This document shows, one piece after another, positions 4,688 through 14,734 of a stretch of 31,227 bases of DNA. Location: assembly GCA_964616935.1 (NCBI GenBank), contig CAZTVJ010000570.1, positions 1 to 31,227 on the forward strand, in the 5' to 3' direction. Made by a program: the position numbers and the translations under genes. Origin of the DNA: an uncultured Acidimicrobiales bacterium. Its GTDB lineage: Bacteria > Actinomycetota > Acidimicrobiia > Acidimicrobiales > Ilumatobacteraceae. Under the pieces are notes generated by a model. The model was not told the DNA's origin. It ran no database searches and worked only from the letters and a program-made list of their open reading frames with translations. The stretch's first letter is position 1. Every line of letters starts with the position of its first letter.

Positions 4688-4723
4688 GCCTGGCGAACCT
4701 AGCCCCGCCACCCGCCTCTCGGT

Positions 4724-4755: not shown

Positions 4756-5823
4756 TCAGCGCAGCTCGACCGCGGCGGCACCGGCTTCGACCGAGCCGAC
4801 GACGTGGAACCCCGCTGCCACCAGCGGCTCGACGGTCGACGGATCGACCGAGGCGAGCAGGCCCCCGGAGGTCTGCGGATCGAAGCACAGCGTCTCAAGC
4901 GCGCCGGGAGCGGTGCTGCGCACGTGACCGTGCAGGTACTCGCGATTGCGGGCATCGCCGCCGGTGCGAGTGCCTGCCTCGGCGGCGTCGAGCGCGCCGG
5001 CGTAGAGCGGCAGCGCGGCGGTCTCGATGACGATGACCGCGTCCGAGCGCTCGGCCATCTCCCAGCCGTGGCCGCACACACCGAAGCCCGTGACGTCGGT
5101 GACGGCATGGACTCCTTCACCGGCCGCGATCAGTGCCTCCGCGGCGGCACGGTTGAGCGTGCGCATCCAGGCGATGGCGGCCTGCTTCTGCTCGTCGGTG
5201 CCGGCCGCCAGGACGATCCCCGTTCCGACGGGCTTGGACAGCACCAGGGCGTCGCCGGGACGGGCTCCGGCCTTGGTGAAGATGCGGTCCGGGTGGACCA
5301 GCCCCTGCACGGCCAGGCCGAAGATCGGCTCCTCGCTGCGGATCGTGTGACCGCCGACCACCATGCCCCCGGCCTCGCGCACGACCTCGGCCGCCGCCGA
5401 CAGGATGCGACCGATGGCGGCGACGGGCAGCCGCTCGGGGAAGGCGGAGATGTTCAGCGCCATGACGACGCGGCCCCCCATGGCGAACACGTCGCTGCAG
5501 GCGTTGGCCGCGGCGATGGCGCCGAAGTCGCCGGGGTCGTCGACGAGCGGCGGGAAGAAGTCGGTGGTGGACACGATGGCAAGGTCGTCGCTGACCCGGT
5601 ACACGGCGGCATCGTCGAACGGGGCCAAGCCCACGAGCAGCGCGGGATCGGCGTCGGCCACCAGGTCGCGCACCAGCTGCGCGAGCGGCGCGGCTCCCCA
5701 CTTGGCGGCGCATCCACCGCACGCTGTCCACTCGGTGAGCCGCAGGTCGGCCAGCTCGTCGGCGCCGGGCTCGGCCCCACCGGCCACCTCGGCCCCGACG
5801 GCGGGATTGGCCACCTCGGTCAT
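4756..5823 (-). CDS. selD: Selenide, water dikinase (selenophosphate synthetase), Cys-type
   Basis: LTEWTACGGCAAK (both Cys are TGC), DDAAVY, TTDFFPP, AANACSDVFAMGG, GGHTI, TDVTGFG, DPQTSGGLL. ATG 5823 preceded by TAGGCT + 7 nt. Confidence 0.93.
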   Translation of the reverse strand: MTEVANPAVGAEVAGGAEPGADELADLRLTEWTACGGCAAKWGAAPLAQLVRDLVADADPALLVGLAPFDDAAVYRVSDDLAIVSTTDFFPPLVDDPGDFGAIAAANACSDVFAMGGRVVMALNISAFPERLPVAAIGRILSAAAEVVREAGGMVVGGHTIRSEEPIFGLAVQGLVHPDRIFTKAGARPGDALVLSKPVGTGIVLAAGTDEQKQAAIAWMRTLNRAAAEALIAAGEGVHAVTDVTGFGVCGHGWEMAERSDAVIVIETAALPLYAGALDAAEAGTRTGGDARNREYLHGHVRSTAPGALETLCFDPQTSGGLLASVDPSTVEPLVAAGFHVVGSVEAGAAAVELR

Positions 5824-5830
5824 GGAGAGA

Positions 5831-5836
5831 AGCCTA
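5831..5836 (-). promoter_or_regulatory. Putative -10 box (TAGGCT) of leaderless selD
   Basis: TANNNT located 7 nt upstream of the ATG; no SD. Confidence 0.55.
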
Positions 5837-5941
5837 CGGGGCCGCGCCGCAGTCACCGCCCGCGACGAACTCCGGCCCCACGACGCGGCTTTCCGCATCG
5901 ACAGGCCGGACTTCGACCGAAGGACCGCGGCGCGGCCCGTA
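5835..5941. repeat. 107-bp nested imperfect foldback (inverted repeat) between divergent selD and deaminase genes
   Basis: Outer arms 5835-5854 / 5923-5941 (1 bulge, 1 mismatch), middle arms 5866-5877 / 5904-5915 (1 mismatch), inner arms 5881-5888 / 5893-5900 (1 mismatch, loop CTTT). TA at both ends. Confidence 0.8.
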
Positions 5942-5945
5942 AGGT
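5940..5945 (+). promoter_or_regulatory. Putative -10 box (TAAGGT) of leaderless amidohydrolase gene
   Basis: TANNNT located 6 nt upstream of ATG 5952; no SD. Confidence 0.55.
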
Positions 5946-5951
5946 CGGCCG

Positions 5952-7316
5952 ATGGCGGACCTCGTGGTGACCGGTGCCCAGCTCGTCGCGACGATGGACG
6001 ACGGCCGCCGTGAGCTGCCGGGTGGCTGGGTGGCGATCACCGGAGGTCTGGTGGACGCTGTCGGCGCCTCGACCGATCCGCTCCCGACCGCTGATCGGGT
6101 GCTCGACGCCCGTGGCTGCCTCGTCACGCCCGGCCTGATCAACACCCACCACCACATCTACCAGAACCTCACGCGCGCCCACGGTCCAGCCACGAAGGCG
6201 ACGTTGTTCCAGTGGCTCACCACCCTGTACCCGCTGTGGAGCCGGCTGGACGAGGAGGCGGCCTACGTGTCGGCGTGGGTGGGTCTGGCCGAGCTGGCTC
6301 TGGGCGGCTGCACCACCACCACCGATCACCTCTACGTGCACCCACGCGGTGGGGGCGACCTGATCACCGCCGAGATCACGGCGGCGCGGGAGCTGGGCAT
6401 GCGCTTCCACCCGACCCGCGGATCGATGAGCTTGTCGCAGAAGGATGGCGGCCTGCCGCCGGACTCAGTGGTCCAGGACGACGACGAGATCCTGGCCGAC
6501 TCGGAGCGCCTCGTCGCGCGCCACCATGACCCCTCCCACGGGGCCATGGTGCGCGTCGCGCTGGCCCCGTGCTCACCGTTCTCCGTCACCCCGGAGCTGA
6601 TGGTGCGCACCGCCGAGCTGGCCGAGCGGCTCGACGTGCGCCTCCACACCCACCTGGCCGAGGACCCCGACGAGGACACGTTCGCCGGGCAGACCTTCGG
6701 GCGGCGCACCGTCGAGCAGTTCGAGGAGGTCGGCTGGTGCACCGACCGCACGTGGGTAGCGCACTGCATCTACCCGAACGACGCCGAGATCGGCCGCCTC
6801 GGGGCGGCGGGCGTCGGCGTGGCCCACTGCCCCAGCTCGAACATGATGATCGGTGGCGGCGGCATCGCACCCGTCCCCGAGCTGCGGGCGGCGGGAGTGC
6901 CCGTGGGCCTCGGCTGCGACGGCTCGGCCTCCACGGACTCGGCCTCGCTCTGGATGGAGGCCCGCAACGCCATGCTCCTCGGCCGGCTTCGCCGCGGACC
7001 CGAATCGACCGGCGCCCGTGACGCCCTCGAGATCGCGACACGGGGAGGCGCGGGCTGCCTCGGCCGCACGGGTGAGCTCGGGCAGCTGTCTGTGGGTGCC
7101 GTGGGCGATCTCGTGTGCTGGCCGCTGGAGGGCGTCGCCTTCGCCGGTGCTCTCACCGACCCCGTCGAGGCCTGGCTGCGCTGCGGGCCCGTCGCCGCCC
7201 GCCACACCGTCGTGGCCGGGCAGCCGGTCGTGCGTGATGGACACCTCGTCGGTGACCGGGTCGAGGAGATGCTGCGCTCCCACCGTCGCATCAGCCACCG
7301 CATCCAGGCGGGCTGA
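5952..7316 (+). CDS. Amidohydrolase, 8-oxoguanine deaminase / AtzB-like family
   Basis: PGLINTHHHIYQNLTRA (HxH), TTTTDHLY, PCSPFSV, HTHLAE, AHC, CPSSNM, LGCDGSAS, ATRGGA. Exact substrate not determined. Confidence 0.88.
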   Translation: MADLVVTGAQLVATMDDGRRELPGGWVAITGGLVDAVGASTDPLPTADRVLDARGCLVTPGLINTHHHIYQNLTRAHGPATKATLFQWLTTLYPLWSRLDEEAAYVSAWVGLAELALGGCTTTTDHLYVHPRGGGDLITAEITAARELGMRFHPTRGSMSLSQKDGGLPPDSVVQDDDEILADSERLVARHHDPSHGAMVRVALAPCSPFSVTPELMVRTAELAERLDVRLHTHLAEDPDEDTFAGQTFGRRTVEQFEEVGWCTDRTWVAHCIYPNDAEIGRLGAAGVGVAHCPSSNMMIGGGGIAPVPELRAAGVPVGLGCDGSASTDSASLWMEARNAMLLGRLRRGPESTGARDALEIATRGGAGCLGRTGELGQLSVGAVGDLVCWPLEGVAFAGALTDPVEAWLRCGPVAARHTVVAGQPVVRDGHLVGDRVEEMLRSHRRISHRIQAG

Positions 7317-7427: not shown

Positions 7428-7634
7428 CTACTTCGAGAGCACCGCGATGGCCTGGGCCCAGAGCACGAACTTGTTGGTGGCCAGATCGCCCACCGTCTTG
7501 ATGCCGAGCGCCGCGTCGAGCTTCTCGCCATCAGCATCGGACAGCCCCTGCAGGGCGGCGACGGGGGCCTTCACGAGATCAGCGAACTCCATGCCCTCGT
7601 AGGCCTTGTCCACGAACTTGGCGATGTCAGCCAC
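7428..7634 (-). CDS. Small 68-aa protein with a helix-hairpin-helix-like segment
   Basis: GGAGG SD before GTG; GC3-rich codons. LQGLSDADGEKLDAALGIKTVGDLA resembles HhH motifs. Confidence 0.75.
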   Translation of the reverse strand: MADIAKFVDKAYEGMEFADLVKAPVAALQGLSDADGEKLDAALGIKTVGDLATNKFVLWAQAIAVLSK

Positions 7635-8889: not shown

Positions 8890-9893
8890 GCGCGGATGCC
8901 GTAGATCTCCGGCTTCACCGAGCGGCGCATCAGCGCCCCCATGCCCTGCGCCGCGCTGGCGCCGTGATGGCAGACCGCCACCACCTGTTCGGTGATCGGC
9001 ATGTCGACGCCATGGCGACGCGCCAGCGCCAGCACTGATGGCGAGCTCTTGACCCCCTCGGCCACCTGCTTCATCTCGGCGATCACGTCGGCGATCGTCC
9101 GACCCTTGCCGAGCTCTCGCCCGACCGTGTTGTTGCGGCTCTGGGGGCTGGAGCAGGTGGCGATGAGGTCGCCCATCCCGGCGAGGCCCGAGAAGGTGAA
9201 GCCGTCAGCGCCCATCGCGATGCCGAGCCTGCTCATCTCGGCCAGGCCGCGGGTGATGAGCGTCGCTCGCGTGTTGTCGCCGAAGCCCATGCCGTCGGCC
9301 ATGCCGACGGCGATGGCGATGACGTTCTTCACCACGCCGGACAGCTCGCAGCCCACGACGTCGGGGTTCGTGTAGACGCGGAAGTGCGGGGTGTTGAAGA
9401 TGCGCTGCAGCTCACCGGCGATGACCTCGTCGGGCATCGCGACCACGCTTGCCGCCGGTTGCCCGGCCAGCACCTCCTTCGCCAGGTTGGGCCCGGTGAG
9501 CACCGCGACGGGGTGGCCGGGCAGCACGTCCTGCACGACCTCGCTCATCCGCCGCAACGTGTCGCGCTCCAAGCCCTTGACCAGGCTGACCACGGGCACC
9601 CACGGGCGCACGAACGGGACGGCGGTGGCGAGCACCTCGCGGAAGAACGGCGACGGCACGCCCATCACGATCACATCGGCTGTGGAGGCAACCTCCTCGA
9701 TGTCCGACGACGCCCGCAACGCCTCGGGCAGCTCGTAGGACGCCAGGTAGGTGCCATTGCAGTGCTCGGTGTTGATCTGTTCGGCGAGTGCCGGCTCGCG
9801 GGCCCACAGCAGCGTCGGCGCGTTCTGCACCGTGAGAGCGGCGACGGTGGTACCCCAGGATCCGGCACCGATGACCCCCACACGAATCGGCAT
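8886..9893 (-). CDS. gpsA: NAD(P)H-dependent glycerol-3-phosphate dehydrogenase
   Basis: VGVIGAGSWGTT, LVKGLE, LTGPNLAKE, KNVIAIAVG, GLAGMGDLIATC, SRN, AEGV. ATG 9893. Confidence 0.95.
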   Translation of the reverse strand: MPIRVGVIGAGSWGTTVAALTVQNAPTLLWAREPALAEQINTEHCNGTYLASYELPEALRASSDIEEVASTADVIVMGVPSPFFREVLATAVPFVRPWVPVVSLVKGLERDTLRRMSEVVQDVLPGHPVAVLTGPNLAKEVLAGQPAASVVAMPDEVIAGELQRIFNTPHFRVYTNPDVVGCELSGVVKNVIAIAVGMADGMGFGDNTRATLITRGLAEMSRLGIAMGADGFTFSGLAGMGDLIATCSSPQSRNNTVGRELGKGRTIADVIAEMKQVAEGVKSSPSVLALARRHGVDMPITEQVVAVCHHGASAAQGMGALMRRSVKPEIYGIRA

Positions 9894-9917
9894 GACACCC
9901 ACCGTAGACTCGCCCGG
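9894..9917. promoter_or_regulatory. Bidirectional leaderless promoter: overlapping -10 boxes TACGGT (-) and TAGACT (+) sharing one TA
   Basis: 24-bp gap = 7 nt + ACCG-TA-GACT + 7 nt. Each TANNNT is 7 nt from its start codon; no room for an SD. Confidence 0.65.
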
Positions 9918-10520
9918 GTGACGGTCGCCGTGCTCGTCCCGGTGAAGGACTTCCGCCAGGCCAAGCTGCGCCTCGCCGAAGCACTCGATCCCGCGGCCCG
10001 CGCCGCGCTGGCCCGGCACATGGCGGCCAACGTCCTGGCTGCGGCCTCCGGCCTGCCCACCTTCGTGGTCACCGACGACGACGAGGTGGCCACCTTCGCC
10101 CGCGATCGCGGTGCCGACGTCCTGTGGCGACCCCACCTCGGGCTGAACGGGGCGGTCACCGACGGCGTCCTCACGCTGGGCAACGCCGGCCACGATCGCG
10201 TGCTCGTCGCCCATGCCGATCTCCCCCTCGCCGTCGACCTCGTGTGGATCGCCCGCCTCGGTGGCGTCACACTCGTCCCCGACCGCCACGACGACGGCAC
10301 CAACGTGGCCTGCGTGCCGTCCGACGTGAGCTTCACCTTCGCCTACGGACCGGGATCGTTCCGGCGCCACGCCGCCGAGGCCCGGCGGCTGGGGCTGGCG
10401 GTGCGTGTGGTGCGAGAGCCCGCGCTCGGCTGGGACGTCGACGTCCCGGACGACCTGTCCCACCCGTCACTCCAGGGGGTCCTCCCATCGCTGCCAACGA
10501 GCCCGGCCAGCCCCACCTGA
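9918..10520 (+). CDS. cofC: 2-phospho-L-lactate/phosphoenolpyruvate guanylyltransferase (F420 biosynthesis)
   Basis: VLVPVKDFRQAKLRL, GLNGAV, HADLP, PDRHDDGTN, FAYGPGSFRRH, WDVDVPDDL. Divergent from gpsA, as with mycobacterial gpdA2-fbiD. Confidence 0.92.
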   Translation: MTVAVLVPVKDFRQAKLRLAEALDPAARAALARHMAANVLAAASGLPTFVVTDDDEVATFARDRGADVLWRPHLGLNGAVTDGVLTLGNAGHDRVLVAHADLPLAVDLVWIARLGGVTLVPDRHDDGTNVACVPSDVSFTFAYGPGSFRRHAAEARRLGLAVRVVREPALGWDVDVPDDLSHPSLQGVLPSLPTSPASPT

Positions 10521-12193: not shown

Positions 12194-12592
<399 letters not shown>

Positions 12593-12620
12593 GGTGCTCC
12601 TCTCTCCTTGCGGTCCGGTA

Positions 12621-12905
12621 CTAGCGCTTCGGGTTCAGCTCACCCTTGAGGGTGGAGCTGGGGGTGAACTTCATGGCGGTCGAAGCCGGCACGTGCACCG
12701 TCTTCGTGCGGTCCTGCGGGTTGGCCACCGTGCGGGCGGCCCGCTTGACGGTGCTGAACTTCCCGAAGCCCGGCCACGCAACGTCGTCGCCATTCTTGGC
12801 GGACGCCGTCACCTCGCTGAAGAAGGCGTCGAGCACCTTCTCGGCGTTCGCCTGGGTCGTGTCAGCCGCCTTGGCCACCGCTGCGAGCAACTCGGCCTTG
12901 GTCAT
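12621..12905 (-). CDS. hup: HU family DNA-binding protein (94 aa)
   Basis: [60 protein letters not shown]; TAG stop. Confidence 0.95.
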
Positions 12906-13086
12906 GTGTTGTCGATACCTCCTGGTACACGGAGCGAAACTCAGCGCACATCAGAACTTTTCCGCAGGCCAAGGTCAAGCATTTCGGTCATCACTCGATC
13001 GTTGTACTTGCAACCTTCTGCCCGAGCACTGACGCCGCCCGGCAAACAGACTGGCCGCCGCGACGCTCGTCGCGCACACTGTGGAC

Positions 13087-14717: not shown

Positions 14718-14734
14718 GCGTTAGCGTCGCCTCG

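Follow-up and report, generated by a model that had tools for sequence, protein, structure and literature searches.

What does a 107-bp imperfect palindrome mean when it lies exactly between the promoters of two divergent genes, and how might it have come to be there? The question is raised by a 31,227-nt contig from an uncultured Acidimicrobiales bacterium of the Ilumatobacteraceae (GenBank assembly GCA_964616935.1, contig CAZTVJ010000570.1), the whole of which we call the window. In it, the selenide, water dikinase gene selD and a gene for an 8-oxoguanine deaminase-like amidohydrolase are divergent and separated by a 128-nt spacer (5824-5951), most of which can fold back on itself. An earlier note on this DNA, made from the sequence alone, had proposed that a miniature inverted-repeat transposable element (MITE) landed in a TA dinucleotide shared by two overlapping promoters, or else that the palindrome is a symmetric operator or cruciform serving both genes. 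We find that the foldback is real, far beyond chance, and that it is single-copy. As for its origin, we lean tentatively, with a confidence somewhat short of even, towards a lineage-specific palindrome that arose in place, in weakly constrained DNA upstream of the two promoters. The features on which the argument turns are these.

4756 to 5823, minus strand: selD (selenide, water dikinase), 355 aa; ATG at 5823-5821; NCBIfam TIGR00476, 339.6 bits against a cutoff of 125.
5831 to 5836, minus strand: selD -10 box TAGGCT, 7 nt upstream of the ATG; predicted leaderless promoter.
5835 to 5941, no strand: imperfect palindrome (foldback), 107 bp, occupying the whole gap between the two -10 boxes.
5835 to 5854, no strand: outer stem, left (selD-proximal) arm; partner 5923-5941.
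5866 to 5888, no strand: inner stem, left arm; 23-nt arms, 78% complementary.
5893 to 5915, no strand: inner stem, right arm; 23-nt arms, 78% complementary.
5923 to 5941, no strand: outer stem, right (deaminase-proximal) arm; partner 5835-5854.
5940 to 5945, plus strand: deaminase -10 box TAAGGT, 6 nt upstream of the ATG; predicted leaderless promoter.
5952 to 7316, plus strand: 8-oxoguanine deaminase-like amidohydrolase, 454 aa; NCBIfam NF006055, 605.9 bits against a cutoff of 532.

Read on the plus strand, the site runs CAT(5821-5823)-GGAGAGA-AGCC-TA(5835-36)-103 nt(5837-5939)-TA(5940-41)-AGGT-CGGCCG-ATG(5952). The outer stem has 19 pairs and one bulge, with its arms at 5839-5854 and 5923-5938 being 94% complementary. 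An irregular middle segment separates it from the inner stem, which closes on a 4-nt loop (5889-5892, AAAG), and the nested stems that the earlier note had drawn between 5835 and 5941 are thus borne out. The minus strand can form 45 pairs, five of them G-U, and the plus strand 36, none of them G-U. Folded as RNA, the 128-nt spacer reaches -88.3 kcal/mol on the minus strand (z = -6.9) and -70.4 kcal/mol on the plus strand (z = -4.0), and none of 200 shuffles was as stable on either strand, so the proposed fold stands up to shuffling as well; DNA parameters give z = -6.2 for the minus strand and -3.3 for the plus strand. When the whole 31-kb window, which has a G+C content of 70-73%, was scanned for stability with G+C correction in 110-nt windows every 10 nt (~3,100 per strand), the foldback was the top outlier, at -6.1 standard deviations on the minus strand, with the runner-up at -3.8. 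Logan contigs from two runs independently carry it, with flanks that differ on each side, and it is therefore not an assembly artefact.

The upstream DNA of the two promoters is a mirror image, near-identical over ~19 bp beyond each -10 box. Divergence between the arms is uneven, with one transition and one indel over the 19 positions of the outer stem, five mismatches over the 23 of the inner stem, and a middle segment that is unpaired; such inequality is more in keeping with a patchwork, or with a palindrome that is ageing, than with one recent insertion. Across the window we found no Rfam 15 match at the gathering threshold (the best permissive match scored 19 bits against a threshold of 50). 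A terminator scan found no GC-rich stem with a U tract, and the flanking genes both point away from the spacer. Scanning for a sigma-70 consensus returned nothing.

Much depends on whether the two boxes are promoters. TA is rare in this genome, and just 17 TANNNT hexamers occur over both strands of the 31 kb. Ten of the 17 end 5-9 nt before the ATG or GTG of an open reading frame (ORF) of at least 60 aa, against one to five at control spacings, and these ten include the selD and deaminase boxes as well as those of gpsA and cofC. Other start-proximal hexamers lie at 4701 and 26826 on the minus strand and at 14722, 23826 and 24318 on the plus strand; TANNNT by itself nearly marks the leaderless genes of this genome. 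In 106 of 164 loci (the window and the selD loci that we fetched), an in-frame selD start is preceded at 5-9 nt by a TANNNT box, in most cases TAGGCT or TAGCCT, and this holds in many upstream contexts. Deaminase orthologues have TACGGT or TAGGGT 9 nt before a conserved MADLVV start (fetched loci L002, L003, L165, L166 and L167). Maps of transcription start sites in Mycobacterium tuberculosis have TANNNT as the only recognisable promoter element, with no -35 consensus (PMC3898074, PMC3160421), and closely juxtaposed divergent promoters are common in mycobacteria (PMC3898074). The computational evidence is strong, and it supports the view that both boxes look like genuine leaderless -10 elements. 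The earlier claim that the terminal TA dinucleotides of the foldback open two divergent -10 boxes agrees with this, given their leaderless distance from conserved starts. It had also likened the site, once collapsed around a single TA, to the gap between gpsA and cofC:

9901 to 9910, no strand: gpsA box (TACGGT, minus) and cofC box (TAGACT, plus), overlapping on one TA; comparison site, 24-bp gap.

At 9891-9920 this gap reads CAT-GACACCC-ACCG-TA-GACT-CGCCCGG-GTG, with the starts 24 bp apart, which confirms the overlapping-TA architecture. Back in the selD/deaminase spacer, there is no TA apart from the two that open the boxes, and therefore no further TANNNT box that could transcribe the hairpin. 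The hairpin most likely lies upstream of both start sites and would hence be untranscribed. In the sole RNA-type run with this organism, depth is very low; one 262-nt contig, inside selD, was recovered, and the spacer has no coverage.

If the foldback were a mobile element, further copies might be expected, and the earlier note had taken multiple TA-flanked copies as the mark of a MITE. None was found. The window holds no second copy by blastn. Two metagenomes, which hold the host genome at 7-9x depth, were searched with contigs matched at 80% likeness or more; exactly one contig per run covers 5824-5951, contigs of other organisms stack on the flanking conserved coding segments, and no contig in either metagenome skips the foldback. 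In the Logan 31-mer index of public runs, words from the hairpin occur in these two runs only. The identical sequence is likewise confined to two freshwater-sediment metagenome runs, both from one study. There are no copies in 757 kb of related Acidimicrobiia loci (170 fetched loci), and a distant-mode search of the PLSDB plasmids gave chance GC-rich matches only. For copies of the terminal repeats, the genome and metagenome contig collections were not scanned by degenerate pattern; copy searches elsewhere found this locus alone. In all that was searched, the foldback is single-copy.

Relatives with the same gene pair are few. The deaminase is paired divergently with selD in none of 160 selD loci from GTDB genomes and JGI metagenomes, and we found the pair only in L002, L003 and L167. 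The first two (SelD 81% identical) share the same gene order, cofC, gpsA, a hypothetical gene and the deaminase gene on one side, and selD and rnhB on the other. The spacers of the three measure 123 bp (L002), 122 bp (L003) and 49 bp (L167), each with two separate -10 boxes. Folding was run on the 122- and 123-bp spacers, whose folds are no more stable than those of shuffled sequences (z = -0.7 to +1.6); the 49-bp spacer is too short for such a fold. Because the spacers of these relatives differ in length and the two longer ones have no significant fold, the palindrome appears to be lineage-specific and the spacer length variable. Moreover, since relatives without the foldback have two TA-initiated boxes, no TA duplication is needed to account for the two TAs. 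The earlier note had expected that an insertion would leave relatives with an empty site of about 23 bp; no such site (CAT-7nt-AGCCTAAGGT-6nt-ATG) is seen among the three relatives that share the pair. No collection that we searched yielded a relative above ~81% SelD identity, and the top SelD match among GTDB representatives is at 76-80%. All of the protein relatives come from Acidimicrobiia or Acidimicrobiales metagenome-assembled genomes (MAGs).

The surroundings of selD in other Acidimicrobiia are variable. Across L005-L170 its upstream neighbour may be a co-directional hyp392 gene, an overlapping or fused rpiB, a divergent MOSC gene or a divergent deaminase gene. As the upstream gene changes repeatedly while the TAG[G/C]CT box stays, the selD promoter edge looks like a recurrent rearrangement boundary. 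Two contigs of JGI sample 3300056388 (4508 and 5391 bp) have the deaminase gene divergent from rpiB-selD-DUF3303-rnhB, with 25 bp between the called starts, and this gap is a candidate shared-TA site whose DNA could not be read. Since some relatives have rpiB between the deaminase gene and selD, we considered the possibility that the spacer is the remnant of a deleted rpiB, and set it aside when the translated spacer showed no similarity by eye. Two other loci have structures of their own at this edge. At L090:1666-1713, an unrelated, lower-GC hairpin with a perfect 23-bp stem stands directly upstream of the selD TAGCCT box, and a co-directional histidine-kinase/receiver gene has its stop codon just before it; the hairpin may act as a terminator or insulator, or be a repeat element. 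At L066:2412-2490, an unknown gene and selD form a divergent leaderless pair, and an inverted repeat of 11 nt (GGCCGAGCCTA / TACGCTCGGCC) takes in both -10 boxes, the 72-bp spacer having a strong fold (z = -4.4).

Does the spacer retain any trace of what preceded the palindrome? We scored local alignments against dinucleotide shuffles, and added a position weight matrix test and a test of top-5 similarity. The full spacers of the window and L003 align at p = 0.12 and their left halves at p = 0.06, GGTCCTTCGG matches GGTCCTTTGG beside the L167 deaminase box at p = 0.07, and the position weight matrix test on the spacer gives p = 0.09. For the selD-proximal 25 nt compared with relatives, top-5 similarity has p = 0.02. 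These are weak hints, suggestive only, that both ends of the spacer may be homologous to the spacers of relatives. CGGGCCGCGCCGC, which fills the 13 nt from the deaminase box to GGTCC, is extra in comparison with L167, and the selD-proximal GCGGCGCGGCCC(C)G is its reverse complement. The relation is suggestive in its resemblance to a template-switch copy, with statistics that fall short of demonstration. One arm compared as the reverse complement of the other half of the sister spacer gave no signal.

On the account that we tentatively favour, the starting state would have been an existing promoter spacer of the kind that varies in length among relatives, and the palindrome would have been made by replication template switching, or by short inverted repeats that expanded and were homogenised step by step. 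That template switching can create or extend perfect inverted repeats, promoters included, is documented (PMC8794818, PMC13100816, PMC8604942). The product was probably tolerated, as promoters that consist of TANNNT only should constrain upstream DNA little; only palindromes in register with both -10 boxes would leave both promoters intact. We propose that the palindrome ends exactly at the two TAs because both boxes must survive. At a distance of 15 nt, the 5' end of selD has a slippage-type expansion that carries an 11-nt direct repeat, so that local replication errors appear to have been fixed in this lineage before. We infer, then, a template-switch origin, no transcription across the foldback and no dedicated function.

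Several points weigh against an origin in place. The tests of homology in the spacer interior all fall short of firm significance (p = 0.02-0.12), and we recovered no ancestral or intermediate state, the closest relatives standing at ~80% SelD identity; the origin is accordingly inferred, not observed. An element that duplicates TA would likewise leave a palindrome with its ends exactly at two TAs. If the palindrome has aged and 45 pairs are still formed, selection for pairing, and thus function, could be the reason. Finally, each of the five transition mismatches reads as G-U on the selD-sense strand (two-sided p = 0.06), three of them in robust stems, and a 5:0 bias towards G-U is not expected of purely neutral DNA.

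The alternative put forward in the earlier note is that a solo MITE-like foldback of the IS630/Tc1-mariner type entered a TA shared by overlapping -10 boxes, its duplication of the TA preserving both promoters. The 107-bp size falls within the range of such elements (~50-500 bp), the outer stem would serve as 19-bp terminal inverted repeats, and the flanking TA-TA fits as well. Removal of the element and one TA yields the overlapping-box architecture seen 4 kb away at gpsA/cofC, and Correia elements and other MITEs are known to sit at promoters (PMC10969869). The TA at each end of the foldback also opens a -10 box, however, and because every -10 box opens with TA, two TAs are expected anyway, as in the relatives that have two such boxes without a foldback. 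Dispersed copies are lacking throughout the window, the host metagenomes (at 80% likeness or more), the Logan index, the 757 kb of related loci and the plasmids, with no contig that skips the element; an empty site is lacking too, the same-pair relatives having spacers of 49-123 bp with two separate boxes. It would also be a coincidence, had the insertion been independent, for the window spacer (128 bp) to come so close in length to the sister spacer (122 bp). We consider such an insertion distinctly improbable. What stands of the earlier proposal is its promoter half; the MITE half fails on both of the points by which that note meant to judge it, copies and empty site. Two other repeat classes were tried and rejected, REP/RAYT by the single copy and attC because no R''/R' core motifs were seen by eye (against the consensus).

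Selection might instead have shaped the palindrome as a DNA device that co-regulates selD and the deaminase gene, either as an array of symmetric operators for a dimeric or tetrameric regulator or as a supercoil-driven cruciform. Its centre of symmetry, 5890/5891, is 67 nt from one start site and 61 nt from the other and so close to their midpoint, the ~19 bp upstream of both boxes are near-identical, the structure is the strongest in 31 kb, and the divergent leaderless pair of L066 likewise has an inverted repeat across both -10 boxes. The same-pair relatives lack the structure, though: their 122- and 123-bp spacers have z = -0.7 to +1.6, and the 49 bp of L167 are too short. At ~105 bp the palindrome far exceeds the usual length of an operator, no regulator gene adjoins it, and its imperfect stems (36 pairs on the plus strand) and GC-rich centre would probably make cruciform extrusion costly. 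This explanation is unlikely, if less so than the insertion. A variant, which we regard as very doubtful, would have template switching give birth in one lineage to a coupling device, a supercoil-sensitive cruciform or shared symmetric operator that works through the mirrored upstream DNA, tying the expression of SelD, and with it selenophosphate supply, to that of the 8-oxoguanine-deaminase-like enzyme. The hairpin might otherwise act as selD-sense (minus-strand) RNA, either a long structured 5' leader or a small RNA, with an unrecognised promoter upstream as its source. That the minus strand folds 18 kcal/mol better than the plus strand speaks for this, as do the five of five transition mismatches that are G-U on the minus strand and C-A on the plus strand, but the asymmetry is weak (p = 0.06 for 5:0, and p = 0.25 for 3:0 in the robust pairs). 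No Rfam match was found, there is no TA and hence no TANNNT box for at least 160 nt upstream on the minus strand, and, by the conserved TAGGCT-7nt-ATG, the hairpin has the selD start site on its downstream side. The loop sequence, AAAG, is not one of the stabilising tetraloops, no structure is conserved in relatives, and the sole RNA-type run, of very low coverage, has no contig over the spacer. We hold this possibility to be slight.

Comparison with known systems is instructive for a palindrome formed in place as well as for its rivals. Like the Correia elements (CREE) and IS630/Tc1-mariner MITEs, the foldback belongs to the ~100-150 bp range, with terminal inverted repeats, end TAs, a foldback structure and a promoter position (PMC10969869). 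Such families run to tens or hundreds of copies and show polymorphic empty sites, whereas the foldback has a single copy and no empty site; and while the promoter boxes of MITEs are often inside the element, here the -10 boxes extend beyond the TA into host sequence common to relatives. With template-switch inverted repeats (PMC8794818, PMC13100816, PMC8604942) the foldback shares a local, single-copy nature, a near-perfect stem, patchwork segments and a setting in promoter DNA, but it is larger than most documented events, at ~50 nt per arm, and switch points are not shown without an ancestral state. The promoters resemble the divergent leaderless promoters of M. tuberculosis, back to back with TANNNT 5-9 nt before the start and no -35 element (PMC3898074, PMC3160421), although the host belongs to the Acidimicrobiia and its promoters are predicted from sequence. 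REP/BIME and ERIC sequences are GC-rich imperfect intergenic palindromes too, ERIC being ~127 bp, but they occur in many copies and as a rule are transcribed at 3' gene ends, unlike this single-copy foldback between two promoters. Divergent leaderless pairs are not known to have been described with a long palindrome between their boxes. On present evidence the foldback is a new instance of a known feature, the intergenic quasi-palindrome, and there is no sign of a novel class of element or of a novel mechanism.

Other genes nearby encode RNase HII, WS/DGAT, cystathionine-pathway enzymes, GpsA and CofC; no regulator gene adjoins the selD/deaminase pair, and the window has no tRNA or tmRNA genes. 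The N-terminal ATGACCGA of SelD is common to relatives. Following the conserved MT(D/E) start, SelD (5750-5823) has ~20 additional N-terminal residues in comparison with all relatives; the 11-nt sequence GGCCACCTCGG stands in this insert twice, as a direct repeat (5782-5792 and 5809-5819), and an in-frame expansion of the slippage type is suggested. A 68-aa ORF at 7428-7634 on the minus strand, between a hyp392 gene and the 3' end of the deaminase gene, has no match in Pfam or NCBIfam, and none was found in the syntenic L002 and L003. Further along, 15- and 60-nt tandem repeats at 12205-12568 encode a Lys/Ala/Pro-rich (AKKA-type) ORF, within 12198-12950, that has its own Shine-Dalgarno sequence and GTG start and sits immediately downstream of a separate ORF with an HU domain (12624-12950, PF00216). 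Together the two look like a HupB-type histone-like protein split in two, and this accounts as well for the AT skew of -0.40 around 12198-12950.

For those annotating Acidimicrobiia MAGs, the rare TANNNT hexamer offers a practical aid, as it nearly marks leaderless starts, and divergent pairs can share one TA. The same rarity carries a caution. A TA-bounded foldback at a promoter is insufficient for a MITE call in high-GC actinobacteria, in which nearly every TA belongs to a -10 box. If the palindrome did arise in place, then upstream DNA that is free of any -35 element can become a long palindrome without disturbing either of two leaderless promoters. And if the very doubtful coupling-device reading were true, the locus would represent the de novo birth of a regulatory structure in promoters that lack a -35 element.

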